A stretch of DNA of 64,000 nt, taken from NCBI GenBank assembly GCA_049903315.1, contig JBNGBT010000005.1, positions 1 through 64,000 of the forward strand, written 5' to 3'. Origin of the DNA: Candidatus Cloacimonadota bacterium. GTDB taxonomy: Bacteria > Cloacimonadota > Cloacimonadia > JGIOTU-2. The first letter of the stretch is position 1. The number at the start of each line of letters is the position of its first letter. Shown piece by piece: positions 8,453 through 26,203 of the stretch. The notes beneath the pieces were generated by a model. It was not told the DNA's origin. It worked only from the letters and a program-made list of their open reading frames with translations, and searched no databases. Both the position numbers and the translations under genes were made by a program.

Positions 8453-8461
8453 TCAAATCTT

Positions 8462-8884
8462 TTATCGAAATGTATGATAATAGGTCGGGAAGCTCTGGTA
8501 TTCGATACGAAATCTCAGATTCTCAGTAGGGGCATAATCGAGACTGAAGTTGGGCAGGATTTTGGTATTTTCATTTGAAACAAGTGGACTGCTTGAGCCA
8601 AATTTACCATAATTTACAAAGTTTAGGTCAAGAGCGAGTTTTAGTTTATCAGAGAGGGGAAGTGTGAAGCTATTGCAGAAATTGCTGAGATAATACGCAC
8701 TTTTCGTTCCGCTGTTATATGTTGTAGAAAAACTTATTGATTGACTCATTTTGAGGTTGTTAAGCGGTAATTTCGAGGGGAAAGAGAAAGAGGATGGTGC
8801 ATTTTGAGGTGGTGTAAGGTCTTGAGCACAAAGAATGCTCGAGCACAAAAGTATAAGAGCCGCACATAAAGAAATATATTTCAT
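8462..8884 (-). CDS. Secreted hypothetical protein
   Basis: RBS AGGAG, N-terminal signal peptide, in operon orientation. Confidence 0.7.
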   Translation of the reverse strand: MKYISLCAALILLCSSILCAQDLTPPQNAPSSFSFPSKLPLNNLKMSQSISFSTTYNSGTKSAYYLSNFCNSFTLPLSDKLKLALDLNFVNYGKFGSSSPLVSNENTKILPNFSLDYAPTENLRFRIEYQSFPTYYHTFR

Positions 8885-8907
8885 ATAATCTCCTAAAAAA
8901 TATTTTT

Positions 8908-9131
8908 ACCACGAAAGTCACGAAATACGCGAATGAACAGTTTGTCTTGTTCAAAAAAATATAAGCTTCTCATCTCTTTCTAAAACCCTCAGAGTCCAGA
9001 ATGAGCTTAGAAAACAATGCATTCTCAATCAAGGAATTTGTACGAGAATCGAGATAAAACACTGCTCTTTGATTCGAATAACTCATTTCACTGTAAATAA
9101 AATTTTTGTGATTTTCGTGTTTTTCGTGGTT
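8908..9131. mobile_element. MITE-like element with imperfect terminal inverted repeats (ACCACGAAA-NN-CACGAAA) enclosing a GxxExxY-like gene remnant
   Basis: Left arm ACCACGAAAGTCACGAAATACGCGAA (8908). The right arm reverse-complements to AACCACGAAAAACACGAAAATCACAAA (9131). Internal minus-strand peptide MNHEKHENHKNFIYSEMSYSNQRAVF. Confidence 0.55.
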
Positions 9132-9141
9132 CATTGTTGTA

Positions 9142-10443
9142 TTAAGGATAAATTCTGTAAAGCATTCGAGGGAAGGGGATAGCTTCTCTAATATGACGCA
9201 CACCCGCCATCCAGCCGATCAAGCGCTCCAACCCGACACCGAATCCGCTATGGGGAACAGAGCCGTATTTTCGTAAGTCAAGATACCATTGATAATCATC
9301 TAATGATATGTTATCTTCTTCCATTCTCTTTTTGAGTATGTGATAATCGTCTTCTCTTTGCGAACCACCGATTATCTCGCCAAATCCCTCTGGTGCTATA
9401 AGGTCTGAGCCAAGAGAAATTTCATGGTCTTGTGGATCTTCCTTCATATAAAATGCTTTGATATGTTTGGGCCATTTTTCGACAAAGATCGGCACATCGG
9501 AACCTTCAGCAAGAGCTTCTTCTTCCGGAGTGCCCATATCATCTCCAAAATGAATTTCTATTCCCTTTTGCTGTAGTGTTTCTATCATTTCTTTGTAGGA
9601 AATAATCTTGAAAGGAGCATCTGCTTTGTGTAGTGTTTCGACATCGCGTTCGAGTGTTTGCAGGTCTGTCAGATTGTTTTTCAGAACAGATCGAATGACA
9701 AATCTTATCAGATTTTCCTGTATTTTCATATTCTCTTTGTGCTCTACATAGGCAGCTTCCGCATCCATCATCCAGAATTCGGTAAGATGCTTGCGAGTTT
9801 TAGATTTTTCTGCACGGAACACAGGACCGAAATCATAGACTCTCCCCAAACTCATGATACCTGCTTCGAGATAAAGTTGACCCGATTGTGAAAGATATGC
9901 CTTGCCTTGATCAAAATAGGGGACTTCGAAAAGAGTAGTTGTTCCTTCGCATGCATTGGGTGTGAGAATTGGGGAATCAAACCTGAAAAAGCCATGTTTA
10001 TTCAAGTATTCACAAATTGCAAAATACACCGTATGCCGGATTTTCATAAGAGCATTTTGCTTACTGGATCGCAGCCAGAGATGCCGGTTTGAAAGCAGGA
10101 AATCTACGCCATGTTCTTTCTTGCCGATTGGATAATCTTCAGCTATATGTACGATTTTGATGTCTGTGAGTTGAAGCTCGTATTCACCCTCAATATTAGG
10201 ATGCTTCTTTGGAATACCGGTAATAATGATTGATGATTCAAGTGTTAGAGCTTTTACTTTTTCGAACTTCTCTTCACCAAGATCAGGTTTCCATGCAACT
10301 GCCTGCACTTCTCCAGTTCCGTCCCGAAAGATGATAAAGCGGAGTTTGCTGCTCGATTTTCTGTAGTTCCTGACCCAGCCCTGAAGGGTCACTTCTTTTC
10401 CAATATATTTTGAGAGGTCTTTTACAAATATTTTCTTAGCCAT
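9142..10443 (-). CDS. asnS: Asparagine--tRNA ligase
   Basis: OB-fold GWV...FRDGTG, RHLWLRS, YLSQSGQLYLEA, FRAEKSKTRKHLTEFWM, GEIIGGSQRE, PHSGFGVGLER. Confidence 0.97.
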   Translation of the reverse strand: MAKKIFVKDLSKYIGKEVTLQGWVRNYRKSSSKLRFIIFRDGTGEVQAVAWKPDLGEEKFEKVKALTLESSIIITGIPKKHPNIEGEYELQLTDIKIVHIAEDYPIGKKEHGVDFLLSNRHLWLRSSKQNALMKIRHTVYFAICEYLNKHGFFRFDSPILTPNACEGTTTLFEVPYFDQGKAYLSQSGQLYLEAGIMSLGRVYDFGPVFRAEKSKTRKHLTEFWMMDAEAAYVEHKENMKIQENLIRFVIRSVLKNNLTDLQTLERDVETLHKADAPFKIISYKEMIETLQQKGIEIHFGDDMGTPEEEALAEGSDVPIFVEKWPKHIKAFYMKEDPQDHEISLGSDLIAPEGFGEIIGGSQREDDYHILKKRMEEDNISLDDYQWYLDLRKYGSVPHSGFGVGLERLIGWMAGVRHIREAIPFPRMLYRIYP

Positions 10444-10445
10444 GT

Positions 10446-11432
10446 CTATTTCAAATCCATGTTTTTTCTATTTTGATCAATATCTTCCATTATTTTGTAG
10501 GCAACTTGCAGAGCTTGATAACCATCTTGAGCATTCACGATCGGGCGAATATCGGTTTTTATAGATTGAATAAAGCTCTCTATTTCAGCTTTGAGCGGTT
10601 CTTTTTCTATAATGGGAAGTTCTTCAGTTCTAAAAAGCTCAAAAATATTGGCATCGCGCTTTCCTGCCATGACATCTTTCATGATCTCATCAACTTGTGG
10701 GTTCTTTTGAACCACCCGCACTTTTTTATCCTGATAATCGAGGGAAATATACATATCTTTCTGGAAAAAACGTATTTTTCTTTCTCTCTTAAGGGATATC
10801 CTGCTCGATGTGATGTTTGCCAGTGCCCCATTCTCGAACTCGATCTTTGCATTTGCAATGTCGATATCGTTTGTAAGGATGGGTACACCTACTGCATTTA
10901 TTTCTTTTACTCTACTCTGTACGAGTGACAGGATAATATCAATATCATGGATCATAATATCATACACAACCGGAACATCACTGCCGCGTGGAGTGAATGG
11001 GGCAAGCCGGTTTGCTTCAATAAAGATTGGTTTGAGCAAAACAGATGAGAGTGCCATAATTGCAGGATTGAAACGCTCGATGTGTCCAACCTGGAATTTT
11101 ACTCCGCTTTTTTCAACAAGCTCAACGATCTTCCTGGCATCATCAAGGGTACTGCAGATGGGTTTTTCTACGAGCACATGCTTATTATGTTCAACGCAGT
11201 ATTTTGAATACTCATAATGCGATTGTGTGGGGCATGCAATGCTCAGCAGATCAGAATGTATGAGCAGTTCGTCGAGATTGTCATAAACCTGACAACCGTT
11301 TTTATCTGCAATCTCATGTGCCCGTTCTTTGTCTGTATCAAAAATACCAACGGATTCGATGTCCTGCAACTCGCTGTAAATCCTTGCATGGTGCTGTCCT
11401 AAGTGACCAACTCCGATAACGCCTGCTCTCAT
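10446..11432 (-). CDS. Gfo/Idh/MocA family oxidoreductase (possibly GnnA-like UDP-GlcNAc 3-dehydrogenase)
   Basis: GVIGVGHLG, HVLVEKP, GHIERFNPA, DIMIHDID. Confidence 0.9.
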   Translation of the reverse strand: MRAGVIGVGHLGQHHARIYSELQDIESVGIFDTDKERAHEIADKNGCQVYDNLDELLIHSDLLSIACPTQSHYEYSKYCVEHNKHVLVEKPICSTLDDARKIVELVEKSGVKFQVGHIERFNPAIMALSSVLLKPIFIEANRLAPFTPRGSDVPVVYDIMIHDIDIILSLVQSRVKEINAVGVPILTNDIDIANAKIEFENGALANITSSRISLKRERKIRFFQKDMYISLDYQDKKVRVVQKNPQVDEIMKDVMAGKRDANIFELFRTEELPIIEKEPLKAEIESFIQSIKTDIRPIVNAQDGYQALQVAYKIMEDIDQNRKNMDLK

Positions 11433-11737
11433 TTGTCATCCTTTGTATCTGTTTTCTCCGCATTCTTCTTTTTGCTGTAGGAAATCCCAAGATTAAACAC
11501 TGCATAGAGTATCAGAAGATAGGCAACGATTCTCATTAAAATTGTAATACCCATAATGAAGGTGCTGAAGATTATCTCATTAAGTATGAATATCACTGCG
11601 AAAAGTGCAAAAGCAATTCCTATCAGTAGCGGTGACTTATTTTGAGTTTCCCTGTATGCCCATAACCCAAGTGCGAAAATAATGGAGAATAGTAAAAAAT
11701 AAAAAATTGGAAGGATCGTAAAAAATATAGCTGCCAT
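11429..11737 (-). CDS. Small membrane protein (about 3 TM)
   Basis: Hydrophobic segments, RBS GGAG, ATGA overlap with the downstream gene. Confidence 0.7.
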   Translation of the reverse strand: MAAIFFTILPIFYFLLFSIIFALGLWAYRETQNKSPLLIGIAFALFAVIFILNEIIFSTFIMGITILMRIVAYLLILYAVFNLGISYSKKKNAEKTDTKDDK

Positions 11738-11969
11738 TATTTCTCCATATCTGTTTATAAACTTATTGAGATAAATGCATAGAGGTCAATTTGCTGTCAA
11801 TTATTTTGCTTTGAGAGTGAAACATAGAAATCTATATTATTCGAAATGTATGAAATAAAATGATACGAACTATTTTTTCACAACAGCATTTGCACCTAAA
11901 ACACTATTTTATTTGACAAATAAACCATCTTGCGAAATTGCTCATTCAGTTCAAATCAAGGAAAATGAA

Positions 11970-13490
11970 ATGATTGCTCAAGTACATGATTTTTTAAAAA
12001 AAATGATAAAGCTCTCTAAGCAAAAGACGGAGCTCCTGGATTTTGTACATGCCGTTCATAAGCTGTTTGCTGATGAGTTAAATATTCAGAAATCATTATT
12101 CATTCTTGCTATCGACAACTATTTTTTAAAAAGTTCATATAACGCAGAACAGGAAGAATATTGGGACATCCGTACGAATGAATTGCAGGATGAGGACAGG
12201 TTTTCCCGACTCGCAGATATTGTATTCAAAGAGATAAATTTTAAAAGCGATTCCGATATTAAGATCAAGATACAGGATCTTAATATGCCCGTAGGATACA
12301 TCATCGTTCGATCAATTGATGAGGGTAACGATCTGCTGGCGATATTGGAAGAGATAAAAGACTTCTTCTTTCTCATCTGCAAGTCAATCTATCGGCAATT
12401 ACAATTGCATGAAAGAGTGAAAGAATTGAGCTGTCTGCACAGCATCAGCAAAATTGCAGAGAATACAGATCTCAGTATTTCAGAATTTCTTACAGAGATT
12501 GTTCGTCTTCTCCCACCTGCTTTGCAATTTCCCGCACAAGCAAGTGCGCGCATTGTCTACAATGACCAATCATTCCAGACTGATACATTTACCGAGGGTG
12601 AGCGCTCACTAAACGCTCCTATAGTATTAGGCAAAACAAAAACCGGTTTTGTAGAAGTGAGTTATCCAAATGATTTTCAATTGCCGGACAGTTATTTATT
12701 TTTAAAAGAAGAAGAACATCTGATTAGCATCATCGCTCAGGAATTGAGTATTACACTGGAAAAGAAAAAAGCTGAAAAAGAAAGTCAGAACTTAGAGAAA
12801 CAGCTTCGCCATGCAGACAGACTCGCGACACTGGGGCAACTTTCTGCTGGTATCGCCCATGAGATCAATGAACCTCTTGCCGGAATTTTGGGATTGGCTC
12901 AATTGATGGAGAAAAATCAAAGTCTTGATGAGCAGGCTCAATCTGATTTGGAAAATATTGTCTCAGCATCATTACATGCGCGGGAAGTTGTAAAAAAATT
13001 GATGCTTTTTGCACGTCAAATGCCTTCTTCCCAAACCATTCTGAATTTGAATGAGGCTGTTAATAATGCTGTCTTTTTTTTGGAATCCCGCTGCCGCAAG
13101 AACTTAGTGAAGATCACACTCGATCTGAAAAAAGGTATACCAAGTATCAGAGCAGATTCTTCCCAGATCCACCAGGTACTCATTAACCTGATCGTAAATG
13201 CGCTGCAAGCTATGCCGGATGGTGGTATTATAAACCTCAGAACATATTTTGATGACGAACTTGTTTTTCTGGAATGCAGGGATAACGGGATTGGCATGAG
13301 CAAGAACATACTGAGTCAGATATTTAATCCTTTCTTCACAACAAAAAAAGTGAATGAAGGAACCGGTCTTGGATTATCAGTGGTGCATGGAATTATTTAC
13401 TCCCATGGCGGTGAAATAAAAGTGACCAGTCAACTGAACAAGGGAACAAAATTCTTGATAACATTTCCACACGCTTTAAAGGAAGGTTAA
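11970..13490 (+). CDS. Cytoplasmic NtrB-type sensor histidine kinase with GAF-like input domain
   Basis: AGIAHEINEPL, NLIVNALQAM, DNGIGM, FNPFFTTK, GTGLGL; no TM segments. ATG 11970 preferred over TTG 11913. Confidence 0.93.
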   Translation: MIAQVHDFLKKMIKLSKQKTELLDFVHAVHKLFADELNIQKSLFILAIDNYFLKSSYNAEQEEYWDIRTNELQDEDRFSRLADIVFKEINFKSDSDIKIKIQDLNMPVGYIIVRSIDEGNDLLAILEEIKDFFFLICKSIYRQLQLHERVKELSCLHSISKIAENTDLSISEFLTEIVRLLPPALQFPAQASARIVYNDQSFQTDTFTEGERSLNAPIVLGKTKTGFVEVSYPNDFQLPDSYLFLKEEEHLISIIAQELSITLEKKKAEKESQNLEKQLRHADRLATLGQLSAGIAHEINEPLAGILGLAQLMEKNQSLDEQAQSDLENIVSASLHAREVVKKLMLFARQMPSSQTILNLNEAVNNAVFFLESRCRKNLVKITLDLKKGIPSIRADSSQIHQVLINLIVNALQAMPDGGIINLRTYFDDELVFLECRDNGIGMSKNILSQIFNPFFTTKKVNEGTGLGLSVVHGIIYSHGGEIKVTSQLNKGTKFLITFPHALKEG

Positions 13491-13492
13491 TA

Positions 13493-14833
13493 ATGAAAAA
13501 TAAGAGAATTCTTGTTTTGGATGATTCAGATATAACCAGAGATGTGATAAAGCGAAATCTTGCTGCTCATGGTTATCAACTTTATACAGCTGGAAACTTT
13601 GATCTGGCGAAGGAAATACTTCAGGAAATCGAACCGGATCTGGTGATCACAGATTTAAAAATGCCAGACATCAGCGGATTGGATGTTATAACCTATATCA
13701 CTGAAAATTTCAAGAATGTCGAAATAATTGTTATCACTGGTTATCCTACCATTACCTCTGCTGTTGATGCTGTAAAACTTGGTGCTGATGATTATTTAAC
13801 AAAACCATTTACGGATGTAGAACTTTTAGCAGCAGTGAAGAAAGCATTGGAAAAACAGGATAATAAACGGGAATTTAACCGGGAAATCACTGATGGATTC
13901 GGAGAAAAATTCGGAATTATAGGCAGTTCTGAGAAGATGCTGGAAGTGTTTAAAACAATCAAAAAAGCTTCTGAAATAAACAGCACAGTAATGATTACCG
14001 GCGAGAGCGGAACCGGAAAAGAATTAGTGGCGCGAGCAATTCATTATACTGGCTTCAGGGGAGCGGCGTCTTTTGTTCCCATAAATTGCGGAGCAATACC
14101 GGAAACACTTTTAGAAAGCGAGTTGTTTGGCTATGTGAAAGGTGCTTTTACAGGTGCTCATACTACCCGTGATGGTTTTTTTAAAAGTGCCAATAAAGGC
14201 ACGATCTTTTTAGATGAGATATCTGAAACCTCTATGATGCTTCAAATCAAATTACTACGTGTGATCCAGGAAAAAGAAGTGTATATGGTAGGTTCCACTG
14301 AAGCTCAGAAAGTCGATGTCCGAATTCTGGTTGCATCCAATAAAGACTTATATGGATTAGTGAGATTGGGTAAGTTCAGAGAAGATCTTTTCTATCGTTT
14401 GAATGTTCTCACTATCAACATTCCTCCTCTAAGAGAACGGGGTACAGATATTTTCCAGCTCGCCAATTATTTTGCCAATAAATACGCAAGTGAATTCGAT
14501 AAGAAAATTCCATCCTTCAATGATGAAGTGCTGGATATATTAGGAAAGTATAACTGGCCCGGTAATGTGCGTGAATTGGAGAATCTTGTTCATCGCTTAG
14601 TGATAATGAATGAAGATGGAATAATCCGCAAAGCTGATCTGCCTGTTTTTATGAAATCCAGGATCAGCAATGTGAGTGATGTAAAAAGAACTCTGCAAGA
14701 AGTCGAAATCGAGCACATCAAAAATGTGCTGGAATATACAGACAATAATAAATCAAAAGCATCTGAAATTCTACATATCGATCGCAAAACTTTAAATAAT
14801 AAGCTCAATCAAGAAAATAAAAAAAATTCTTAA
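13493..14833 (+). CDS. Sigma-54-dependent response regulator (NtrC/AtoC family)
   Basis: Receiver domain (LDD...DLKMPD), GESGTGKE, GAFTGA, FLDEI, WPGNVREL, Fis-type HTH. Confidence 0.96.
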   Translation: MKNKRILVLDDSDITRDVIKRNLAAHGYQLYTAGNFDLAKEILQEIEPDLVITDLKMPDISGLDVITYITENFKNVEIIVITGYPTITSAVDAVKLGADDYLTKPFTDVELLAAVKKALEKQDNKREFNREITDGFGEKFGIIGSSEKMLEVFKTIKKASEINSTVMITGESGTGKELVARAIHYTGFRGAASFVPINCGAIPETLLESELFGYVKGAFTGAHTTRDGFFKSANKGTIFLDEISETSMMLQIKLLRVIQEKEVYMVGSTEAQKVDVRILVASNKDLYGLVRLGKFREDLFYRLNVLTINIPPLRERGTDIFQLANYFANKYASEFDKKIPSFNDEVLDILGKYNWPGNVRELENLVHRLVIMNEDGIIRKADLPVFMKSRISNVSDVKRTLQEVEIEHIKNVLEYTDNNKSKASEILHIDRKTLNNKLNQENKKNS

Positions 14834-14898
14834 ACAGAGCTAAATGCGTTTCATATTCTGACTTACAATACCTGAAGTCGCTGTGGAATTCTAGAAGT

Positions 14899-14917
14899 AT
14901 GGGGAAAATTTCCTCAT
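14899..14917. promoter_or_regulatory. Putative upstream activating sequence for the sigma-54 activator
   Basis: Near-palindrome ATGGGGAAAATTTCCTCAT about 130 bp upstream of the -24 element. Confidence 0.55.
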
Positions 14918-15045
14918 TTTTCAATTGTAATATTTTTTATATTCACTATCAATAAGTTACTTTTATCATTTATCATTTTATTTTACTGCAGTGTTATCAG
15001 GCATTTGCAGCTTTCGGATAACTAATTTTTTATTTTTCCATCTTT

Positions 15046-15061
15046 TGGCATAAAAATTGCA
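15046..15061 (+). promoter_or_regulatory. Sigma-54 (-24/-12) promoter of the gdh operon
   Basis: TGGCATAAAAATTGCA has GG and GC at canonical spacing, lies 42 nt upstream of the gdh ATG, and follows an NtrC-family gene. Confidence 0.85.
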
Positions 15062-15103
15062 AATAGACAAATCAAAAATGCAGAAAATTACAAAGGAGAA
15101 AAG

Positions 15104-16387
15104 ATGGAAAAGTCTTTCAATGCATTTAAAATGGCACAAGATCAGTTTGATGCAGTTGCCGACAAATTAGACCTGAATGAAGCTTCAAGAGAACTCTTGA
15201 GAACTCCAATGCGGGAATATCATTTTACTATTCCTGTGAAAATGGACGATGGAACCTCTAAAGTGTTCCGTGGATTTCGCATTCAACACAATGATGCCTT
15301 AGGACCATGCAAAGGTGGAATTCGCTTCCATCCACAAGAAACTGTTGATACAGTTCGCGCACTTTCCATGTGGATGACATGGAAAACATCTGTTGTTGAT
15401 ATTCCTCTTGGCGGAGGAAAGGGTGGAGTGATTTGCGATCCGCATAATCTATCAGCCAGAGAACAAGAGCAGATTTGCCGTGGTTGGATTCGCCAATTGC
15501 ATAAAAATGTGGGTCCGCTTCGTGATATTCCTGCTCCCGACGTGATGACGAATGGACAGCATATGTTGTGGATGTTGGACGAGTATGAAACGATTATGGG
15601 TGAAAAATATCCCGGGATGATAACCGGTAAACCAGTTGGTATGGGTGGTTCACTTGGCAGAACTGAAGCGACAGGTTATGGTGTTATCTTTACTGTTCGT
15701 GAAGCTCTGAAAGAAATGAATATAAACATCGAGGATACCACTGCTTCCTTCCAGGGATTCGGTAATGTTTCACAATATGCTATTAAATTGTATAACCAGC
15801 TCGGCGGTAAAGTGCTCTGCGTTTCCTGTTGGGATCAGCAGGATCAAACATCCTATGCTTTCTATAAAAAAGAAGGAATCAATATAGATGAACTTCTTAA
15901 TATCACAGACAGATTCGGTGGAATCAACAAAACAAAAGCTAAAGAGCTTGGTTATGAAATACTTCCGGGCGAGAAGTGGATTGAAATAGAGTGCGACATA
16001 TTGGTTCCTGCGGCTATGGAAAATCAGATAACTGGCGAAAATGTGAACAAGATCAGTTCAAAAGTAAAACTGGTTGCAGAAGGAGCTAATGGACCCACTA
16101 CACCGGAAGCTGACGAAGTACTCAAAGAGCGCGGCATTTTCATGATCCCGGATTTCCTGTGCAATGCAGGCGGAGTTACCTGCAGCTATTTCGAGCAGGT
16201 GCAATGCAATATGAATTATTTCTGGAGCAAAGATGAAGTTCTTGGAAAACTCGATTACAAAATGACTACTGCGTATCACAAGGTTTCTAAACTCGCAAGA
16301 GAAAAGAAAATATACATGCGTGACGCAGCTTATATGATCTCTGTCGACAGAGTAGTACGAGCCTCTGTTGCCAGAGGTTGGATATAG
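15104..16387 (+). CDS. gdhA: Glu/Leu/Phe/Val dehydrogenase (glutamate dehydrogenase)
   Basis: GPCKGGIRFHP, MTWK, GGGKGG, DIPAPDV, GRTEATGYG, QGFGNV, EGANGP, PDFLCNAGGV; RBS AAGGAG. Confidence 0.95.
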   Translation: MEKSFNAFKMAQDQFDAVADKLDLNEASRELLRTPMREYHFTIPVKMDDGTSKVFRGFRIQHNDALGPCKGGIRFHPQETVDTVRALSMWMTWKTSVVDIPLGGGKGGVICDPHNLSAREQEQICRGWIRQLHKNVGPLRDIPAPDVMTNGQHMLWMLDEYETIMGEKYPGMITGKPVGMGGSLGRTEATGYGVIFTVREALKEMNINIEDTTASFQGFGNVSQYAIKLYNQLGGKVLCVSCWDQQDQTSYAFYKKEGINIDELLNITDRFGGINKTKAKELGYEILPGEKWIEIECDILVPAAMENQITGENVNKISSKVKLVAEGANGPTTPEADEVLKERGIFMIPDFLCNAGGVTCSYFEQVQCNMNYFWSKDEVLGKLDYKMTTAYHKVSKLAREKKIYMRDAAYMISVDRVVRASVARGWI

Positions 16388-16401
16388 AGAAATATCCTCC
16401 G

Positions 16402-16429
16402 TAAAGGGCAGATTCACGTCTGCCCTTTA
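16402..16429. other. Intergenic hairpin after gdhA (no U-tract)
   Basis: TAAAGGGCAGA-TTCACG-TCTGCCCTTTA perfect 11-bp stem. Confidence 0.7.
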
Positions 16430-16451
16430 GATATTATTAAAAGGAAATGCA

Positions 16452-18197
16452 ATGAAAAGCGGACAAAAATTTCAGCGGGAGACCGGATTCTTTCATGATG
16501 GTTTTACCTATATCGGAACAGGCTTTCCGGGTGGTAAAGCCTCAGGTTTGGCTTTATCGCAAAATATTTTGAAGAAACACTTCCCTGAAGGTGATATTGC
16601 TGGAATGCAGGTTAATATACCACACACAACCGTATTGCTGAGTGGAGTGTTCGATCAATTTATGAAGGAAAATGATCTCTATGAAATTTCTCTCTCAGAT
16701 GCTTCCGATGAAGAAATTGCAATCAGTTTTATAAATTCTTCTTTTGGTGGCTTATATACCGGGGATCTATACTCTTTGATCTCAAATGTCGATAAGCCAC
16801 TCGCAGTACGTTCCTCAAGCATTTGCGAAGATTCATTGAACGAACCGTTTGCCGGATTTTATGAAACAAAAATGGTGGCAAATAATCAGGTAAGCATCAC
16901 AGATAAATATAATGCTTTGGTCAATGCCATCAAATATGTGTATGCTTCACTTTTCTTTAAGCAGTCTAAGAAATATTTTCAAACCATTAATCGCGATATC
17001 AGTGATGAAAAGATGGCTGTTATTATTCAAGAAGTTGTGGGTGATCAGCATGGAGATTTTTTCTATCCATACATTTCAGGTGTACTGAAATCCTACAATT
17101 TCTATCCTTCAGAGCAGATTGAACCGGATGCAGGTTTTGCTGCATTGGCTTTTGGCTTGGGTAAAACGATCGTTGACGGCTCAAGTTGCTGGAGCTACTG
17201 TCCGCGCTATCCCCGCACTCCTCAACCATTCAATAATATGAAAGACCTATTGAATAATACCCAAAAAGAATATTGGGCTGTGAACCTGGGAAAGATCAAT
17301 AATTACAATCCTGTGGCGGAAACTGAATACCTGGCATTAAATTCTATCTTCGATATCAAAGACAAAAAATTACTCAGACATATCTGTTCCACTTATGACC
17401 ATGCGAATGACCGCCTTATTATGGGTGTGCAGAATTATGGTGCTCCTGTCTTGGATTTTGCTCCTATTTTACGGGCTGAAACTTTGCCTTTGAATACTGT
17501 GATCTCCGAGATAATTAAAGCATGTGAGGAAGAAACAAACAGCAAAGTAGAAATTGAATTTGCAATATCTTTGGGAACAACAAATAATCCCCAACCACGA
17601 TTTGGTTTCCTGCAACTTCGACCAATAAATATTTCAAATGAGATTATCGATTTGCCGAAAATTGCAGATAATACAGATGAATTGCTGCTTTTTTCAAGAA
17701 ATGTAATGGGAAACGGGAAATCGAATGACATTTTTGATATTGTGTACATTCGTCCGGAGAATTTCGAAATTCAGTACACAAATCAGATAGCTGCTGATAT
17801 CTCTGAATTTAATGCACTTTTTACTGCGAATAAACGTAAATATCTGTTGATCGGATTTGGAAGGTGGGGTACATCTGACCCATGGTGTGGAATCCCGGTG
17901 CAATGGCCGCAGATCTCGAATGCGAAAATAATTGTTGAAACAGTACTGCCAAACATGAGAGCAGATTTCAGCCAGGGCGCACACTTCTTCCACAACATGA
18001 CTGCACATAATGTATTCTACTTCTCTGTTGATAAGGAAGACGCCAAAAACCTTGACTGGAATTGGATTCAGCATCAGAAAACAATTAACGAAACGAAATT
18101 CGTGAAGCATGTAAGATTAAAGCGAAATCTGACCGTGCTGGTTGACGGCAGACACAGCAACGGTGCTATATTTAAGAATGAAGATATAAAACAATGA
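16452..18197 (+). CDS. PEP/pyruvate-binding (PPDK N-terminal ATP-grasp) domain protein
   Basis: GGKASGL, LAVRSSS..ED...FAG.YET, MAVIIQEVVG, GLG, EIEFA...LQLRP; no C-terminal PEP-utiliser barrel. Confidence 0.85.
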   Translation: MKSGQKFQRETGFFHDGFTYIGTGFPGGKASGLALSQNILKKHFPEGDIAGMQVNIPHTTVLLSGVFDQFMKENDLYEISLSDASDEEIAISFINSSFGGLYTGDLYSLISNVDKPLAVRSSSICEDSLNEPFAGFYETKMVANNQVSITDKYNALVNAIKYVYASLFFKQSKKYFQTINRDISDEKMAVIIQEVVGDQHGDFFYPYISGVLKSYNFYPSEQIEPDAGFAALAFGLGKTIVDGSSCWSYCPRYPRTPQPFNNMKDLLNNTQKEYWAVNLGKINNYNPVAETEYLALNSIFDIKDKKLLRHICSTYDHANDRLIMGVQNYGAPVLDFAPILRAETLPLNTVISEIIKACEEETNSKVEIEFAISLGTTNNPQPRFGFLQLRPINISNEIIDLPKIADNTDELLLFSRNVMGNGKSNDIFDIVYIRPENFEIQYTNQIAADISEFNALFTANKRKYLLIGFGRWGTSDPWCGIPVQWPQISNAKIIVETVLPNMRADFSQGAHFFHNMTAHNVFYFSVDKEDAKNLDWNWIQHQKTINETKFVKHVRLKRNLTVLVDGRHSNGAIFKNEDIKQ

Positions 18198-21100
18198 ACA
18201 CAATTGAAGAAAATCCTAATACATTAATAGAAAGCCTGAAAGAAAGACAAAAAGAGCTTAATTGTATTCATGGGCTGGAAAGCATTTTAGCCGATTTCGA
18301 TCAACCTCTGGAGAAAATATTTAGGGAGATCTTAGATATTCTTCCTCACGGCTGGCAATTTCCCGACCTCTGTTTTGCCGAAATAGAATATTATGATAAG
18401 GTGTATAAAAATTCAAAATCACTCAACACAGAATATGTACAGAAGTCTCCTTTACACAAAAACAATATTCGATTTGGAGAGATTCGGATCTACTATTCCG
18501 ATGTTCCGCCTGAGCTTCATCATGATCCTTTTCTCAAAGAAGAATACTCTCTTTTAAACACTGTTGCAAGCATCCTGGCTTCCTATCTCGCAGTGCGTTC
18601 ATACAGGGAAACCGCACCCATCTCAGCGCATCGTGGTGAATGGAAAGTTATCATCAATATGTTGCAAAAGACGGATATTAAGCTTTTTTTGCGCATAGCC
18701 AGAAAGCTGCTGAATCTCCTTTATCAAAAAGGAATCGGAGAAGTGAAATCGATCTATGCATCATTCGGAGCTACTACCCGTGGCTCTGAAATTGAGTTAA
18801 GCCAGGAAATCAATGTTCCACTGAAGAAAAAAGATTATAAAGATACAATCAAGTTAAGTGATCAGATATTCGAAATTGCCGAAAAACATTTTGCCGACGA
18901 AGAATTAATGGATTATATCCGCAAGTGGATGCAGGAAGATAAATTGAACTTTTTGGTCATCTCTCTGGAAAGTAAGGATACAAACCTCTCCGAACTCCAA
19001 GATGCCATTTTCCATTATAATAATCAGGATATTGATAAAGAAAGTCTCTCGCCGTTTGCTTACATGAATGTAAAAGTGCTACTCATTCAGAAGTTGTTCA
19101 CCAATCAGCTTGAATTCATTAATGTTGCGAAGAATTATATTGAAGTTGATGATTTTTATGAAGTATTGCAGCATACGATCTTTCCAAGCAATTCACATGG
19201 AAAACTGGGTGGAAAAAGTACTGGTCTTTTCTTTGCCAATAATATTGTGAAACGCGAAGCTGATGAAGATTTCGCGAAATACATTAAAACACCACAAACC
19301 TGGTATATTACTTCCGATGCGATGCTTCACTTCCTTCATTATAATAATTTGGAAGAAATCGTAGAACAGAAATACAAGGATATTGAGAGTGTTCGGGCTG
19401 AATATGGCAATATTATCCAGATGTTTAAAAATTCCCATTTCCCGCACGAGATTTCAAAAGGATTATCTCAATTCCTGGATGTTTTGGGTGACAAGCCGAT
19501 CATCGTGCGAAGTTCTTCTCTTCTTGAAGACAGCTATGGCGCTGCTTTTTCCGGTAAGTATAAAAGTCTTTTCCTGGCTAATCAGGGAAATAAGCAGGAG
19601 CGATTGAATGCTTTGGAGGACGCCATTGCAGAAGTATACGCTTCCATCGTAGGACCTGATCCGATTGAGTACCGTAAGGAACGCGGTCTTCTTGATTTTA
19701 AGGAAGAAATGGCAATTCTTATACAGGAAGTAGTTGGAACGAAATGCGGGAAATACTTTTTCCCTGCTTTTGCTGGAGTTGCTTTTTCTAATAACGAATT
19801 CCGTTGGTCTTCCCGAATAAAACGAGATGATGGACTTGTACGAATGGTTCCTGGATTGGGAACACGTGCTGTGGACAGATTGAGCAATGATTATCCTGTT
19901 CTAGCATCTCCCGGAAAACCGGGTATCAGGGTTAATGCAACGACCGAAGAAATATTAAAATGCAGTCCTAAGAATATCGATCTGATCAACCTGGAAACGA
20001 ATTCATTTGAATCATTGCCAATCCGAGAAGTTATAAGGGATTGCAAAGAACAATTTCCTCTTTACCGGCAACTGTTCTCAGTTTATGAAGATAACGAGCT
20101 CATCGAAAAATCCGGCTTCAATATCGATTTTGAAAACGATGACTTAATCGTCACATTCAATGGTTTGATCAACAATACTCCTTTCTTGAAAAGGATTAAT
20201 AAGATTCTTGAGATATTGAAAGAAAAGTTGGGTACTCCGGTAGATGTGGAATTCGCAGTGAAAGATGACGACTTTTATCTTCTACAATGCCGTCCTCAGA
20301 GTTTTTCTAAAACTGATAATCCGCAACCTATTCCTCAGGATATTCCCGACAACGATATCCTATTTTCCGCGCATAAATATATTTCGAATGGGTTTGTCCC
20401 GGAGATTTCTTACATGGTTTATGTGGATCCTGAAAAATACAGCGATCTCCATACTATTGATGAGCTGCACAAAGTAGGGCGTTGTATCGGAAGGTTGAAT
20501 CTGTTACTTCCAAAAAAGAAATTTATCCTGCTAGGACCCGGACGATGGGGGAGTAAGGGAGATATAAAATTGGGCGTGAACGTCACCTATTCAGACATTA
20601 ATAAAACAGCTGTTCTCATCGAAATAGCGAAAGAAAAGGGGAATTATGTTCCCGATCTATCCTTTGGCACACATTTCTTCCAGGATTTAGTAGAAGCACA
20701 AATTCGTTATATTCCACTCTATCCTGATGAAGAGGGTAATATATTCAATAAAAATTTTTTCAGGTTTTCAAAAAATATCCTACCCGATCTTGTGCCTGAC
20801 TTTATGGATTTGCAGGATTGTGTTAAGGTTATTGATATTTCTGCAGAAACTGATGGTAAAATTCTGAAGATATTCATGAATGCTGATCTGGATGAAGCAA
20901 TCGGGTACGTAGGAATGCCAGGTATAAGCCGGGACTACGTCTCTTATCAGCCCGAGAGTTATGATAAAAGTGCTGATAATTATTGGTTCTGGCGTATGCA
21001 AGTATGCGAGTTCCTGGCGCAAAATATTGAAGCAGAGAAGCTTGGCGTAGAAGCCCTTTATGTTTTCGGAAGCGTGAAAAACGCTAATGCAGGTCCAGCG

Positions 21101-21343
21101 AGTGATATCGACCTGCTGATTCACTTCAGGGGAAATGAGATGCAGAGAAAAGAACTTATTGCATGGTTGGATGGCTGGAGTTTGTCATTGGATTATTCAA
21201 ACTATCTTAAAACAGGTTATAAAACCGGGGGACTTTTAGATGTACATATCATCACTGATGAGGATATCGAGAATAAAACCAGTTTTGCTCTCAAGATCAA
21301 TGCTGTGACCGATGCAGCAAGAAAACTGGATATGAGGAAATGA
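18194..21343 (+). CDS. GAF-like + PPDK N-terminal ATP-grasp + C-terminal Pol-beta nucleotidyltransferase fusion protein
   Basis: N-terminal ERQKELNC...LPHGWQFP...FLKEE. Core GGKSTGL, IVRSSSLLED...FSGKY, MAILIQEVVG, DVEFA...LQCRP. C-terminal LYVFGSVKNANAGPASDIDLLI. Confidence 0.85.
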   Translation: MNTIEENPNTLIESLKERQKELNCIHGLESILADFDQPLEKIFREILDILPHGWQFPDLCFAEIEYYDKVYKNSKSLNTEYVQKSPLHKNNIRFGEIRIYYSDVPPELHHDPFLKEEYSLLNTVASILASYLAVRSYRETAPISAHRGEWKVIINMLQKTDIKLFLRIARKLLNLLYQKGIGEVKSIYASFGATTRGSEIELSQEINVPLKKKDYKDTIKLSDQIFEIAEKHFADEELMDYIRKWMQEDKLNFLVISLESKDTNLSELQDAIFHYNNQDIDKESLSPFAYMNVKVLLIQKLFTNQLEFINVAKNYIEVDDFYEVLQHTIFPSNSHGKLGGKSTGLFFANNIVKREADEDFAKYIKTPQTWYITSDAMLHFLHYNNLEEIVEQKYKDIESVRAEYGNIIQMFKNSHFPHEISKGLSQFLDVLGDKPIIVRSSSLLEDSYGAAFSGKYKSLFLANQGNKQERLNALEDAIAEVYASIVGPDPIEYRKERGLLDFKEEMAILIQEVVGTKCGKYFFPAFAGVAFSNNEFRWSSRIKRDDGLVRMVPGLGTRAVDRLSNDYPVLASPGKPGIRVNATTEEILKCSPKNIDLINLETNSFESLPIREVIRDCKEQFPLYRQLFSVYEDNELIEKSGFNIDFENDDLIVTFNGLINNTPFLKRINKILEILKEKLGTPVDVEFAVKDDDFYLLQCRPQSFSKTDNPQPIPQDIPDNDILFSAHKYISNGFVPEISYMVYVDPEKYSDLHTIDELHKVGRCIGRLNLLLPKKKFILLGPGRWGSKGDIKLGVNVTYSDINKTAVLIEIAKEKGNYVPDLSFGTHFFQDLVEAQIRYIPLYPDEEGNIFNKNFFRFSKNILPDLVPDFMDLQDCVKVIDISAETDGKILKIFMNADLDEAIGYVGMPGISRDYVSYQPESYDKSADNYWFWRMQVCEFLAQNIEAEKLGVEALYVFGSVKNANAGPASDIDLLIHFRGNEMQRKELIAWLDGWSLSLDYSNYLKTGYKTGGLLDVHIITDEDIENKTSFALKINAVTDAARKLDMRK

Positions 21344-22203
21344 CCGCTGCACTATTCACCAGTGATTTGCATGGTTCCAAAAAGAAGTATGATTTTCTCT
21401 TTGATAAAATTCTCGCAATAAGACCAGCCGCTGTTTTTCTAGGGGGAGATTTGATGGGATTTAGCGCGAAAGGGCGAAACGAAGCACTTCCCACAGGTGA
21501 GGATTTTTTATATGATTACCTTGCAATGAATCTCAAAAAAATCAGTGATGAACTGAAAGATAAATATCCTGCTATTTTTGTGATCCTGGGAAATGATGAT
21601 CCTAAAATTCATAAAGCCGCATTACTTGATATTTCTACAACTGGTCTCATCAGTTATGTAAATGAAAGAACAGTGAAATTCCATGAATATACAGTGATTG
21701 GCTATTCGTATGTACCGCCCACCCCGTTTTTAAATAAGGATTGGGAAAAATATGATGTATCCCGCTTTGTGGATGTTGGTTGTGTGTCTCCGGAAGAAGG
21801 CTATCGCAGTATTCCGGTTTCAGAACATGAGCTGCGATTTTTCACAATAAAACGTGATCTGAACAGACTTTTTACTAATGCTGATCTTTCAAAAACCATT
21901 TGTTTGTTTCATTCACCTCCTTACAATACAAAGCTTGATCGTGCTGCACTTGACGGTGTGAGTGTTGATCACGCACCAGTGGATGTTCATGTGGGAAGTA
22001 TTGCTATCAAAGAATTCATTCTTACGAGATCTCCCTACATCACTTTACATGGTCATATTCATGAATCTTCGAGAATTACTGGCAGTTGGATGGAAAAAAT
22101 CGGAGATACAATCTGCTTTCAGGGAGCAACAGAGCGAGATAAAAACGGCATCATCCTGTTTGACTTAGATGATCCGAAAAATGCTGAGATGCTGAGAGTT
22201 TAA
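21340..22203 (+). CDS. Calcineurin-like metallophosphoesterase
   Basis: SDLHG, GGDL, GNDD, HSPP, HGHIHE; ATGA overlap with the upstream gene. Confidence 0.9.
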   Translation: MTAALFTSDLHGSKKKYDFLFDKILAIRPAAVFLGGDLMGFSAKGRNEALPTGEDFLYDYLAMNLKKISDELKDKYPAIFVILGNDDPKIHKAALLDISTTGLISYVNERTVKFHEYTVIGYSYVPPTPFLNKDWEKYDVSRFVDVGCVSPEEGYRSIPVSEHELRFFTIKRDLNRLFTNADLSKTICLFHSPPYNTKLDRAALDGVSVDHAPVDVHVGSIAIKEFILTRSPYITLHGHIHESSRITGSWMEKIGDTICFQGATERDKNGIILFDLDDPKNAEMLRV

Positions 22204-22231: not shown

Positions 22232-22963
22232 TTAATAAAAATCCCTATTCCTCTCCAACTCAAAAAATATCGTATTTGCAGCAATGGTGATCGCTGCGGT
22301 CTCTGCACGTAAGATATGATTTCCTAAAGATACAATTTGAGCTGAATGCTCTTTTGCAAAATTCACTTCTTTCTCCTCAAAACCGCCTTCCGGACCAACG
22401 ATCAGACAGATATCCTTCTTTGCATTAAGAAGCACCTCCTGAAGATTTTGCTCATTTTCTTCTTCCCATGCGAGAACCGGCATGTATTCGCGAGATAATT
22501 TCTTTAGTAATTCATTGAAATTAAGAGGGTTATGAATTTCTGGGAGATGTGTGGAATCGCACTGCTTGATCGCAGCCACTGCAATTTTCTGGAGTCTTTC
22601 GAACTGGTTGGCAGATAGGGATGTTTTTACATTTCTATGTGCAAAGAAAGGAAAAAATTCATACACACCAAGCTCAGTGCATTTTTCAATGATAAATTCA
22701 TTATGTTGCTTTAAAAGAGAGAATGCCAGTGCAATGTGCGGACGTGATTTCTCTTTTTTTGTAATCTGCTCTACCTGCAGGATCATTTCGTGAGATGAAA
22801 AATTTTTTATCCTGCATTCTGTAAGCAATCCCTTGCCATTTGTTGTGTGAAGGGAATCTCCGACTTTCTTTCGTAATGTATTCTTTACATGCTTAAATTC
22901 TGTGTCTGACAGAATAATCTCCTTTGAAGTATCTGTAAGATCAGGTGTGTAGAAAATTGGCAT
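22232..22963 (-). CDS. rsmE: 16S rRNA m3U1498 methyltransferase
   Basis: H...LR, EKCTELGV, AAIKQC, VGPEGGF, LGNHILRAETA; follows dnaJ. Confidence 0.95.
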   Translation of the reverse strand: MPIFYTPDLTDTSKEIILSDTEFKHVKNTLRKKVGDSLHTTNGKGLLTECRIKNFSSHEMILQVEQITKKEKSRPHIALAFSLLKQHNEFIIEKCTELGVYEFFPFFAHRNVKTSLSANQFERLQKIAVAAIKQCDSTHLPEIHNPLNFNELLKKLSREYMPVLAWEEENEQNLQEVLLNAKKDICLIVGPEGGFEEKEVNFAKEHSAQIVSLGNHILRAETAAITIAANTIFFELERNRDFY

Positions 22964-22978
22964 ATAGGTTAAATAAAA

Positions 22979-24142
22979 TTATACAAAATAGTCTTTGATC
23001 TTATCAAAAAATGATTTTCCGGGCTTCAAATCTCTCTTTTGATCAAAAGGTGCGATCTTACTGTATAATTCCTTTTCCTCGCTGGATATTTTGTTGGGAA
23101 TTACCACAATTATTTTCACATACAGATCACCTTTTCGAGTACTGTTCAGGTGGGGTAAGCCCTGTCCGCGCAATCTGAAAACTTTGCCTGATTGTGTACC
23201 TGATGGTATCTTCATTTTAGCGTGACCTTTAAGTGTGGGGACTTCAAGAGTATTGCCAAGGACTGCATCCGATACAGTGATTGGAAATGTGCAAATGAGA
23301 TCCTGTCCGTCCCTGTCAAAAAGGTCGTTTTTCTTTTCTTTGATATAAACCAGTATATCACCGGCAGGACCGCCCTGTTTGCCTGCGTGTCCCTGTCCTC
23401 GGAGTTTCAGATATTGTCCGTCTGAGACACCTGCAGGAATATCGACTTTGATAGTTTTTACAGAGGAAATTCTGCCATCGCCATTACATTTTGTGCACTT
23501 ATTCTGGATACTTTGACCAGTTCCATTACATGCAGGACAGGTCGTGATCGTTGACATCTGCCCGAAGAATGATTGACGTACTTGTTTGACTCTTCCAGAG
23601 CCGCCGCACTGCTGGCAGGTCGCAACTTTTCCATCAGCTGATCCGGTTCCATGACATGCATCACATGTTTGCTTGATGTTGACTTTGAGCCTCTTGGTTA
23701 CGCCCTTTGCTATTTCTTCTAAAGTGAGAGAAAGGGATATCTTGAGATCACCGCCGCGATTAACTGTGTGCTGCCGAGGTTGACCCCCAAAACCAAATCC
23801 TCCTCCACCTCCACCAAAGAAGGTTTCAAAAATACTGCCGACATCTCCAAAGATGTCTGAAAAGTCATTCGCATGAGTGAAATTATCCCATGTAAAGCCG
23901 CCGCTGCCAAATGAGCCTTCAACTCCTGCATGACCGAACTGATCGTACTTTTTGCGCTTATCTTCATCACTCAAAACTTCGTAGGCTTCAGATGCTTCTT
24001 TAAATTTTTCTTCAGCTTCCTTATCATCTTTATTCTTATCAGGATGATATTTCAATGCCAGCTTTCTATACGCACTTTTAATATCGCTTTGTGAAGCGCT
24101 TTTTTCAACACCGAGTACTTCGTAGTAATCTCTCTTTGCCAT
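22979..24142 (-). CDS. dnaJ: Chaperone DnaJ
   Basis: [16 protein letters not shown] region, four CxxCxGxG repeats. Confidence 0.98.
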
Positions 24143-24170
24143 ATTCTGTTGCAACCTTCTTTATTGATAC

Positions 24171-24202
24171 GCACGGGAACCGCGAGAGTGCAATCCCCGT
24201 GC
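24171..24202. other. Intergenic stem-loop between dnaK and dnaJ
   Basis: GCACGGG...CCCGTGC inverted repeat. Confidence 0.55.
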
Positions 24203-24218
24203 ATAATGTTATTTGGAT

Positions 24219-26174
24219 TTATTTATTTTCTTCGTCATCAACAACTTCGAAATCAGCATCTACTGCGTCATCATCAGGTTGTTCCTGTTGTGTTTGCTGC
24301 TCTTGCTGTCCGGCTTGTTCCTGTCCGGCTGCCTGTTCTTGCTGCTGTTCCTTTTGCTGATTCATAGTTTCCTGATATACTATCTCGCCGAGTTTCTGAG
24401 CTTTTTGCTCGAAATCCGCTTTTGCCTGTTTTAGCACCTCGACATCTTGCGAATCGAGTTTTTCTTTTGCTACTTTGATCGCTTCTTCAATCTCTGCTTT
24501 GTCATTATCTTTCAGTTTTTCACCGTATTCTTTAAGAGATTTTTCTGTGCTGAATATCATTGTATCAAGGTGGTTTCGAAGTTCTACTAGCTCTTTGAAT
24601 TTCTGATCTTCCTGTGCATGTTCTTCAGCTTCTTTGACCATTTTTTCGATCTCATCTTCTGAGAGTGCGCCGGCTTTATCAATCTTTATCTGTTGCTTTT
24701 TGCCGGTTCCTTTATCCACTGCAGAAACATGAAGTATACCGTTTGCATCAATGTCAAACGTCACTTCGATCTGAGGAAGTCCACGTGGTGCAGGAGGTAT
24801 GCCGACAAGGTCAAACCTGCCGAGTGTCCTGTTTTGAGCAGCCATGTCACGTTCACCTTGCAGCACATTAATGGAAACCGCAGTTTGATTATCCGCCGCA
24901 GTTGAGAATATCTGGCTTTTCTTCACAGGTATTGTTGTATTTCTTTCGATGAGTTTGGTCATCACGCCGCCAAGTGTCTCGATACCGAGAGAAAGGGGAG
25001 TGACGTCAAGAAGGAGAATATCTTTCAAATCTTCATCACCGGAAAGAATTCCACCCTGTATTGATGCGCCGATAGCGACGACTTCATCAGGATTCACGCT
25101 TCTGTTTGGCTCTTTTTTAAAGTAATTCTTCACCGCTTCCTGAACAGCAGGAACTCGTGTCGAGCCACCAACAAGAATAACCTCGTCAATTTCTGATATA
25201 TCTATTTTAGCATCTTTTACTGCAGATTTACAGGGTGTGATGCTTCTTTCAATAAGATCATCAATCATCCTGTTGAATTCAGATCGGGAGAGATTCAAAG
25301 AAAGGTGTTTCGGACCGCTGTTATCAGCAGTGATATAAGGCAGATTGATGTTTGTGGACTGAGTTCCGCTTAGTTCAATCTTTGCTTTTTCAGCAGCTTC
25401 ACGAATTCTCTGCATTGCCATAGGATCTTTTGAAATATCGATGCCGTCGCTCTTTTTGAATTCACTCACGACCCAATCAATGATCTTTTTATCAAAATCA
25501 TCACCACCGAGGTGTGTGTCTCCATTAGTCGAAAGCACTTCAACCACTCCTTCACCTATCTCAAGGATAGAGATATCAAAGGTGCCGCCACCGAAGTCAT
25601 ACACTGCGATTTTTTCATCTTTTTTCTTCTCGAGTCCATAAGCAAGTGCTGCTGCAGTTGGCTCATTTATGATACGAGCTACTTCCAGCCCTGCAATTTT
25701 GCCGGCATCTTTTGTTGCCTGTCTTTGAGCATCATTGAAGTATGCTGGCACTGTGATGACAGCTTTTTCTACCTTAGTTCCAAGATATTCTTCTGCAGTT
25801 TCCTTCATTTTTTTGAGAATGAATGCGGATATTTCCTGCGGGCTGTAGTCCTTTTTCTGATTGGGGATCTCGATCTCAACTTCACCTTTACTGTTGCCTT
25901 TGATCTTGAAACTTACTTCAGATTCTTCATTTTTTACTTCGTTCACTTTTCGTCCCATGAAACGTTTTACCGAGTAAACCGTATTCTGGGGATTCGTTAC
26001 TAATTGATGTTTTGCTAACTGACCAACCAGTATTTCGCCATCTTTTGTGAAACCAACCACGGACGGGGTTGTCCTTCCACCTTCAGAGTTTGGAATAACA
26101 GTGGGTTTTCCACCTTCCATGACAGCGACACAACTATTGGTTGTTCCTAAGTCTATTCCTATTATTTTACTCAT
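24219..26174 (-). CDS. dnaK: Chaperone DnaK
   Basis: [44 protein letters not shown]-rich C-terminal tail. Confidence 0.99.
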
Positions 26175-26203
26175 TGTTATACTCCTTGTTTTTTATTAAA
26201 ACA

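Follow-up and report, generated by a model that had tools for sequence, protein, structure and literature searches.

A conserved module of glutamate dehydrogenase and barrel-less dikinase-type proteins in Cloacimonadota, with a separable nucleotidyltransferase/phosphoesterase pair

The locus described here lies in a window of 64,000 nucleotides (the whole stretch of DNA that was analyzed; positions 1 to 64,000 of contig JBNGBT010000005.1, assembly GCA_049903315.1) from a Candidatus Cloacimonadota bacterium. Its six genes encode a sensor histidine kinase (HK), an NtrC-type regulator, a glutamate dehydrogenase (GDH), two proteins with the ATP-binding domain of pyruvate, phosphate dikinase (PPDK), which are named A and B, and a metallophosphoesterase (Table 1). 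Surveys in two phyla showed that this GDH and B are inherited together. An earlier sequence-only reading had taken the six genes as one module; of this, a core of GDH and B (GAF-middle-PPDK_N-His) could be retained, whereas A, the HK/regulator pair and the nucleotidyltransferase (NTase) domain of B with the phosphoesterase are all optional. The module is real, conserved and undescribed in the searched literature: no published description was found in literature searches, most subscription papers and supplements being outside their reach.

Results

GDH and B are co-inherited

Genomes of Cloacimonadota (151) and of a second phylum (145) were surveyed, and in the Cloacimonadota survey the clade GDH was defined at an identity of at least 70%. 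It was found in 34 Cloacimonadota genomes, all of which also encode B, and B was found in 35. The only B without a clade GDH (genome G050) belongs to a locus in decay, where 221 residues of A are left. In the second phylum all 28 clade GDHs were accompanied by B, in one case recognized only in the retrieved locus, and all 28 GAF-bearing B proteins by GDH (one frameshifted). The metagenome loci, the best 80 of 608 by likeness to the His domain of A, included 39 with B. GDH was present in all 32 of these with more than 2.2 kb of upstream sequence, and the other 7 were too short. In 7 retrieved loci gdh directly precedes B and A is missing. The survey of neighborhoods of A/B homologs for gdh, proposed in the sequence-only reading, thereby revealed an extremely tight link between B and GDH in two phyla.

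A and B combine a PPDK-type ATP-grasp domain with a predicted His carrier

Protein A has neither sensor nor barrel; its ATP-site residues are K29, R120, E369, Q388 and R390, and His511 is the histidine of the putative carrier domain. In B, a GAF-like domain (residues 8-140) and a helical middle region (~143-325) precede PPDK_N (Pfam 337-716, with K341, R439, E686, Q698 and R700), and the His domain (~720-905, His827) and the NTase domain (~929-1049) follow it. A and B are 28% identical across PPDK_N and the ~170-residue domain that follows, which is C-terminal in A. PPDK_N (PF01326) scored above the cut-off in both proteins, the K/R/E/Q/R motifs match those of the genome's own PPDK, and conservation of the ATP-site motifs was seen in 102 sequences of the B type and 82 of the A type.

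The shared C-terminal domain is characterized by a loop with GRWG and by the motif SxGxHFF, whose histidine is found in 281 of 284 domains. It has no Pfam name, and PF00391 was unmatched in A and B. An AlphaFold model of this domain, calculated for A alone (residues 408-577, 140 sequences), reached a pLDDT of 95. When 48,161 chains were searched with the model, ranks 1, 2, 3, 5, 6 and 8 were phospho-His swivel domains, with the whole domain covered. The best match was the PPDK carrier domain (2fm4; Z 7.4, rmsd 3.3, 114 residues aligned), and further matches were a pyruvate-kinase C-domain (Z 7.2), PPDK (6.7), rifampin phosphotransferase (RPH; 6.5) and enzyme I (EI; 6.3 and 6.0). In a second fold comparison the top 12 of 992 were all of the phospho-His swivel type. 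His domains of EI and EI-Ntr were among the structural matches. Read element by element, the conserved histidine opens a helix after a strand and a loop, at a position like that of His485 in the genome's own PPDK. Judged from the model, A and B probably carry a phospho-His swivel domain. The absence of such a swivel had been implied earlier; Pfam is silent, yet the modeled domain matches phospho-His swivel domains best. Since the His carrier is likely kept in A and B, phosphoryl transfer would be their default chemistry.

A pyruvate/phosphoenolpyruvate (PEP) barrel could be identified neither in A, which ends with the His domain, nor in B, which ends with the NTase, using Pfam and NCBIfam, and the A/B neighborhoods contained no barrel gene. 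A and B therefore most likely hold two of the three parts of a PPDK, the barrel alone being missing. Among 20 long homologs examined, 17 were A-B fusions, which indicates that A and B likely act together where both exist.

The N-terminus of B is homologous to residues 165-282 of HK, and its nearest named Atlas clusters are GAF (0.86-0.89); at the level of a lead, it is regarded as a GAF-like domain. A special kinship between the GAF domains of HK and B was considered and rejected, as three other signaling proteins of the genome are equally similar. This GAF-like domain (18194-18613 in the window; contigs C33, C44 and C69) starts with ERxKELxC, containing a conserved Cys, and is unnamed in Pfam. 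It is present in kinases and in one diguanylate cyclase, with up to four copies in long members (P0173). A single-sequence fold of whole B had a pLDDT of 35 and was too poor for use.

The NTase domain is paired with the phosphoesterase

The NTase of B (Pfam NTP_transf_2, residues 948-991) is of the Pol-beta/MNT type, and G959, S960, D971, D973 and D1016 are kept in 90% or more of the 119 B sequences compared. The match of the MntA model (E 2e-5) was under the cut-off, and none of the six proteins is a HEPN neighbor as in MNT-HEPN toxin-antitoxin systems; the constant neighbor is the metallophosphoesterase. NCBIfam models of GlnD and GlnE gave no match to the six proteins, and Pfam shows NTP_transf_2/Polbeta alone. 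The motifs DxH, GD, GNDD, H and HxHE of the phosphoesterase were conserved across 53 sequences, and no solved relative was found by phmmer.

The phosphoesterase was identified in 41 Cloacimonadota genomes. Among these are 34 of the 35 genomes with B, the locus of the remaining one breaking off where its contig ends. The other 7 have neither B nor clade GDH, and directly upstream of the phosphoesterase each has a free-standing gene, for a GAF-NTase in 3 and for an NTase in 4 (one frameshifted). All genomes with the phosphoesterase also have the NTase domain (41/41 in Cloacimonadota, 10/10 in the second phylum), and in six B genomes the phosphoesterase is located elsewhere on the chromosome and still kept. 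The second phylum has 10 genomes with a phosphoesterase ortholog, and they are the 10 that carry a full-length NTase-bearing B, a count that omits G169 and G262 (contig ends) and G189 (frameshift). Another 13 genomes of this phylum have an NTase-less B, all with clade GDH, and none of them has a phosphoesterase ortholog. In the metagenome loci the phosphoesterase follows an NTase-bearing B in 16 of the 26 with room (14 on the opposite strand). Internally deleted derivatives of B, either GAF-NTase proteins of 314-323 aa or an NTase alone of 127 aa, are coupled directly to the phosphoesterase (Table 1) and are putative natural minimal writer/eraser pairs.

It is concluded that the phosphoesterase tracks the NTase domain and not GDH. 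The pairing pattern thus separates two modules, GDH with the dikinase core and NTase with the phosphoesterase, and the analysis yields two minimal two-protein systems, GDH + B and NTase + phosphoesterase. Of the writer and eraser acting on GDH or on a metabolite signal that had been proposed, the pair itself is suggested by this co-inheritance, but it is separable from GDH.

The clade GDH and the wider family

The GDH aligns end to end with GDHs of Thermococcales (E 1e-129) and keeps the GxGxx Rossmann motif and the catalytic and glutamate-binding residues. The regions around K70, K94, K106, D146 and S361, residues whose roles are presumed here, are conserved within the clade. Identity is 59-96% inside the clade and at most 53% for other matches; clade status within family II is based on identity, the quick GDH tree having had no non-clade family-II rows. 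The clade has an insertion of its own with an invariant Trp243; it follows the second Rossmann strand beside the cofactor loop and is a candidate site of docking or modification. A family-I GDH and two glutamine synthetases are encoded by the genome as well, and no match to PII (PF00543) was obtained in this genome, which is 96% complete. The prediction of a complex of B143-905 with GDH172-395 scored 0.00, which is no usable answer and speaks neither for nor against binding.

A 987-aa paralog of A and B with receiver (REC) domains is encoded in the same genome (Table 1), followed first by an opposite-strand gene for a Pol-beta NTase of 255 aa and then by the family-I gdhA; after gdhA, on the other strand, lies a cluster of GltD/NuoG-like, NuoF-like and NuoE-like oxidoreductase genes. 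A REC-bearing paralog beside a family-I gdhA was also found in Parabacteroides distasonis and Phocaeicola massiliensis. An 871-aa member with a different N-terminal domain (L189:5430-8045) is located in a cluster of amtB, PII, glnA, flotillin, glnA and glutamate-synthase-like genes. Links to nitrogen enzymes thus recur in the A/B family, though they are not exclusive. The GDH of B. fragilis is reversibly inactivated by ammonium. In 1996, Baggio and Morrison are said to have described one or more trans-acting genes downstream of gdhA in Bacteroides thetaiotaomicron that affect GDH activity, the active segment reportedly being ~3 kb, the size of the REC-bearing paralog.

Other members were observed in further contexts. 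GAF-less B-like paralogs of 770 aa (L180-L188, L197), with ATP and His motifs intact, occur in housekeeping or CHASE2-type contexts. The gdh-B loci L190, L191 and L192 adjoin a conserved 510-530-aa gene and NuoG/NuoF-like genes; the product of the former looks like an FMN glutamate-synthase-type protein, with no NCBIfam match at 1e-10. Two degenerate paralog ORFs lie downstream in L191.

Discussion

Proposed mechanism and alternatives

In the reading preferred here, to which roughly even chances are given, B, together with A, would be a sensor-gated His autokinase of the dikinase type that controls GDH post-translationally, and NTase and phosphoesterase would form a separate reversible layer. 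The conserved histidine is predicted to belong to a swivel-type carrier domain like those of PPDK and enzyme I, and the reaction, by analogy with the chemistry of PPDK, RPH and VadK, would be ATP -> AMP + Pi + phospho-His. Because A and B have no substrate domain, the acceptor would be provided in trans, and co-inheritance makes GDH the acceptor candidate; it would either receive the phosphoryl group or be bound depending on phosphorylation. The GAF-like domain may gate the reaction through a small-molecule nitrogen/carbon signal. A nucleotidyl group would be added by the NTase and removed by the phosphoesterase, with a kinase of the A/B family, a GDH or some small messenger as candidate targets. 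In Cloacimonadota, conserved DNA motifs suggest that the HK/NtrC pair turns on gdh-A-B-phosphoesterase from a sigma-54 promoter (see below).

Several observations weigh against this reading. The co-inheritance counts come from related genomes, which are not independent, and carry no p-value, and a common function is all that gene linkage indicates; it says nothing of direction or chemistry. Members of the REC-bearing branch often lie away from gdh (about 10 of 16 long loci contain gdh, and the Prevotella locus L179 does not). Twelve genomes without clade GDH have a GAF-less B-like paralog whose motifs are intact, and in the 10 loci retrieved from these no gdh is nearby. The pairing of NTase and phosphoesterase is broken in G165 (frameshifted) and G268 (fragmented), which have an NTase-bearing B and no phosphoesterase match. 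The swivel match has Z < 8, a range in which common arrangements can score, and Foldseek with the model of the His domain gave nothing at E <= 0.001, with PPDK at ranks 4, 10 and 17. Profile methods did not recover the relationship either: hhalign of the His domain against the swivel gave a probability of 0.2, a profile search of the PDB with the His domain had no match, and profile alignments of the two reached Z -1.4 and 0.7 against shuffles and placed no His on His.

Of the alternatives, it is unlikely that B and A are metabolically coupled small-molecule dikinases that phosphorylate or activate a 2-oxoacid, glutamate or a nicotinamide cofactor for the clade GDH. The mutual dependence of GDH and B would agree with this, and RPH and PigC/RedH, the best PDB and NCBIfam matches, apply the same two domains to small molecules; moreover, the insertion of the clade GDH lies at the cofactor-binding loop and the helical middle region of B could bind a substrate. 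However, a substrate domain would not fit into A, the N-termini in the family are GAF, REC or other sensor types, the sister branch pairs with an ordinary family-I NADP-GDH, and the GDH retains its glutamate-binding residues.

Slightly less likely still is a reverse flow of information, in which GDH would be the glutamate-, 2-oxoglutarate- or NAD(H)-sensing subunit of kinase B, and B would then phosphorylate glutamine synthetase, receiver domains or the NtrC-type regulator. The dependence is nearly symmetric, 34 of 35 B genomes in Cloacimonadota and 28 of 28 GAF-bearing B proteins having GDH, relatives are fused to receiver domains or sited with amtB/PII/glnA, GDHs of Bacillus are known as regulators, and the genome has no PII match. 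Against this, B already owns a GAF-like sensor, and the neighboring regulator is paired with a canonical kinase and missing from most loci.

The chance is marginally smaller again that the NTase of B nucleotidylates GDH and the phosphoesterase reverses this, in a switch like that of GlnE/GlnD with the ATP-grasp domains as sensors. The conserved catalytic motifs of the NTase, its strict pairing with the phosphoesterase and the presence of all genes in one operon in this genome are what such a switch would predict, but there is no GlnD/GlnE domain architecture, 7 genomes keep NTase and phosphoesterase without clade GDH or B, and 13 keep GDH with an NTase-less B and without a phosphoesterase ortholog. 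Together these 7 and 13 genomes also speak against nucleotidylation of GDH as the core of the system. Finally, that A and B are ordinary PEP synthases or PPDKs, with a barrel perhaps supplied in trans, can practically be dismissed despite their database name 'pyruvate, water dikinase' and the presence of ATP-grasp and His domains, since proteins and neighborhoods have no barrel, the NCBIfam scores (34 and 62 bits) are far under the cut-off of 740, and the genome carries its own complete PPDK of 906 aa; here the sequence-only reading, which had excluded ordinary PEP synthases, was borne out. The top PDB matches of A and B were RPH and PEP synthase, not PPDK.

Comparison with known systems

VadK (Rv1127c) is a PPDK-derived regulatory His (di)kinase with PPDK_N and a His domain but no barrel, which autophosphorylates on His with Mg-ATP, binds methylcitrate-cycle enzymes and acts as a regulator of metabolic enzymes; its description has 0 occurrences of glutamate dehydrogenase or Bacteroid- (PMC13400623). 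A and B likewise combine PPDK_N with a predicted His domain and have no pyruvate barrel. In VadK the His domain is still recognizable as that of a PPDK, and no sensor is fused to it. In A and B the predicted swivel has diverged beyond sequence recognition, and they differ from VadK in the GRWG loop, the GAF/REC inputs, the paralog pairs and fusions, the GDH partner and the NTase/phosphoesterase layer, the comparison being one of architecture.

With PEP synthase, PPDK and RPH (PF01326 + PF00391), A and B share an ATP-grasp domain with the catalytic K, R, E, Q and R and, by prediction, the swivel; in A, as in RPH, the His domain follows the ATP-grasp domain at the C-terminus. In contrast to these enzymes, they have neither a pyruvate barrel nor an RPH-type central substrate domain, and no match to PF00391.

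Enzyme I-Ntr of the nitrogen PTS consists of GAF, phospho-His and PEP-barrel domains. B similarly joins a GAF input to a predicted swivel phospho-His carrier in a nitrogen context, but the phosphoryl source of A and B would be ATP via ATP-grasp instead of PEP via a barrel, and the loci contain no NPr/EIIA genes. Reversible nucleotidylation is carried out by GlnD, with NT, HD and ACT domains, and by GlnE, with twin NT domains, on PII or glutamine synthetase. The loci studied here also contain a Pol-beta-fold writer and a dedicated, putative eraser next to a nitrogen enzyme, but the NTase is minimal, the eraser is calcineurin-like and not an HD or second NT domain, ACT is missing, the genome has no PII match, and the pair can be separated from GDH. 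In the Bacteroides thetaiotaomicron system reportedly found in 1996, the activity of a GDH likewise depends on one or more neighboring genes, and the REC-bearing paralog is placed between gdh genes or next to them in two Bacteroidales records; that GDH, however, is of family I and not of the clade studied here.

By domain criteria the module belongs to none of PEP synthase, GlnD/GlnE and enzyme I-Ntr; it would work like VadK, in an EI-Ntr-like layout. Taken together, it is possible, although rather doubtful as a whole, that it represents an undescribed class of nitrogen signaling that parallels enzyme I-Ntr but is driven by ATP. Dikinases gated by GAF or receiver domains would autophosphorylate on a cryptic swivel His and switch GDH directly, with a reversible nucleotidylation layer on top, and the receiver branch would be the long-sought trans-acting GdhA factor of gut Bacteroidales.

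If so, thousands of entries named 'PEP synthase' or 'pyruvate,water dikinase' would be regulators and metabolic reconstructions of anaerobes would change; there were 6873 matches among 8000 scored candidates. The groups concerned would be Cloacimonadota, Ignavibacteria, Zixibacteria, Krumholzibacteria, Calditrichaceae and Bacteroidota. The VadK principle of a dikinase as protein regulator would extend to a central nitrogen enzyme under control of a sensor-gated regulator, and organisms without PII would have a mechanism for post-translational control of GDH. The old question of which neighboring gene affects Bacteroides GdhA in trans would become testable in culturable gut bacteria.

Sigma-54 control and transcription

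The sigma-54 promoter before gdhA that had been predicted could be confirmed as an element with a TGG...GC core, which all 13 upstream regions in the alignment share without change. It is the sole exact match in the window, in which 0.14 would be expected, and 12 of 100 shuffles held one, so that the site alone is weak. The palindrome upstream of it (Table 1), likely an activator-binding enhancer, is lost in locus L002 and kept in recognizable form in the remaining 12 of the 13 regions. With the -24/-12 element, the upstream site, an activator with GAFTGA and rpoN (sigma-54), which is encoded in the genome, all elements of a sigma-54 operon were found, and its adjacency suggests that the NtrC-type protein activates this promoter. 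The strict sigma-54 pattern matched 8 of 43 upstream regions of clade GDHs, every one from Cloacimonadota; sigma-54 control is thus supported by these motifs, and this support is confined to Cloacimonadota. Of the 6 long Cloacimonadota loci (L171-L176), 4 have the HK/regulator pair adjacent, and it is rare elsewhere, metagenome loci included.

In two lake metatranscriptomes, contigs of a related strain (mostly 85-95% alike) covered gdh, A, B and the phosphoesterase, one contig bridging A and B, and HK and regulator were almost uncovered. These data consist of contigs only, DNA carry-over is possible, and one contig extends into the next gene.

Organization of the locus

The six co-oriented genes were found in the order given by the sequence-only reading, with Pfam domains as named there, and both ATGA overlaps, A/B at 18194-18197 and B/phosphoesterase at 21340-21343, are present. 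The HK ORF starts with TTG at 11913; an alternative ATG at 11970 is preceded by AAGGA 7 nt upstream. GC content of the six-gene region equals that of the window, and close relatives are Cloacimonadota.

Table 1. Features of the locus and of related loci. Positions refer to the window unless a locus is named.
Feature	Position	Strand	Description
Sensor histidine kinase (HK)	11913/11970-13490	+	soluble; GAF-like ~165-282 of 525-aa ORF, HisKA, HATPase_c; optional
NtrC/AtoC-type sigma-54 activator	13493-14833	+	REC, AAA+ (Sigma54_activat) with GAFTGA, Fis HTH (HTH_8); optional
Palindrome TGGGGAAAATTTCCTCA	14900-14916	+	~145 nt upstream of promoter; recognizable in 12/13 aligned regions
Sigma-54 -24/-12 element TGGCATAAAAATTGCA	15046-15061	+	sole exact match in window
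Glutamate dehydrogenase (GDH)	15104-16387	+	Pfam ELFV_dehydrog; family-II type, distinct clade; core
Perfect 10-bp hairpin	16403-16428	+	between gdh stop and A; read from sequence
Protein A	16452-18197	+	581 aa; PPDK_N 27-397; predicted C-terminal swivel-fold domain 408-577; optional
Protein B	18194-21343	+	1049 aa; GAF-like, middle, PPDK_N, His domain, NTase
Metallophosphoesterase	21340-22203	+	calcineurin-like, Pfam Metallophos; partner of NTase domain
Paralog of A and B	L016 (G000:C2:34000-53000) 7108-12316		987 aa; REC-REC-DUF5752-PPDK_N-His; same genome, beside family-I gdhA
Deleted B derivatives	L157:6645-7589, L158:2328-3272, L160:6825-7796, L159:3567-3953, L162:6683-7066		beside phosphoesterase

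The hairpin between gdh and A is a possible partial terminator or mRNA stabilizer and could set the level of A and B below that of GDH. Downstream of the locus, on the minus strand of the window (22232-28003), lies a convergent, ordinary heat-shock cluster of rsmE, dnaJ, dnaK, grpE and hrcA.

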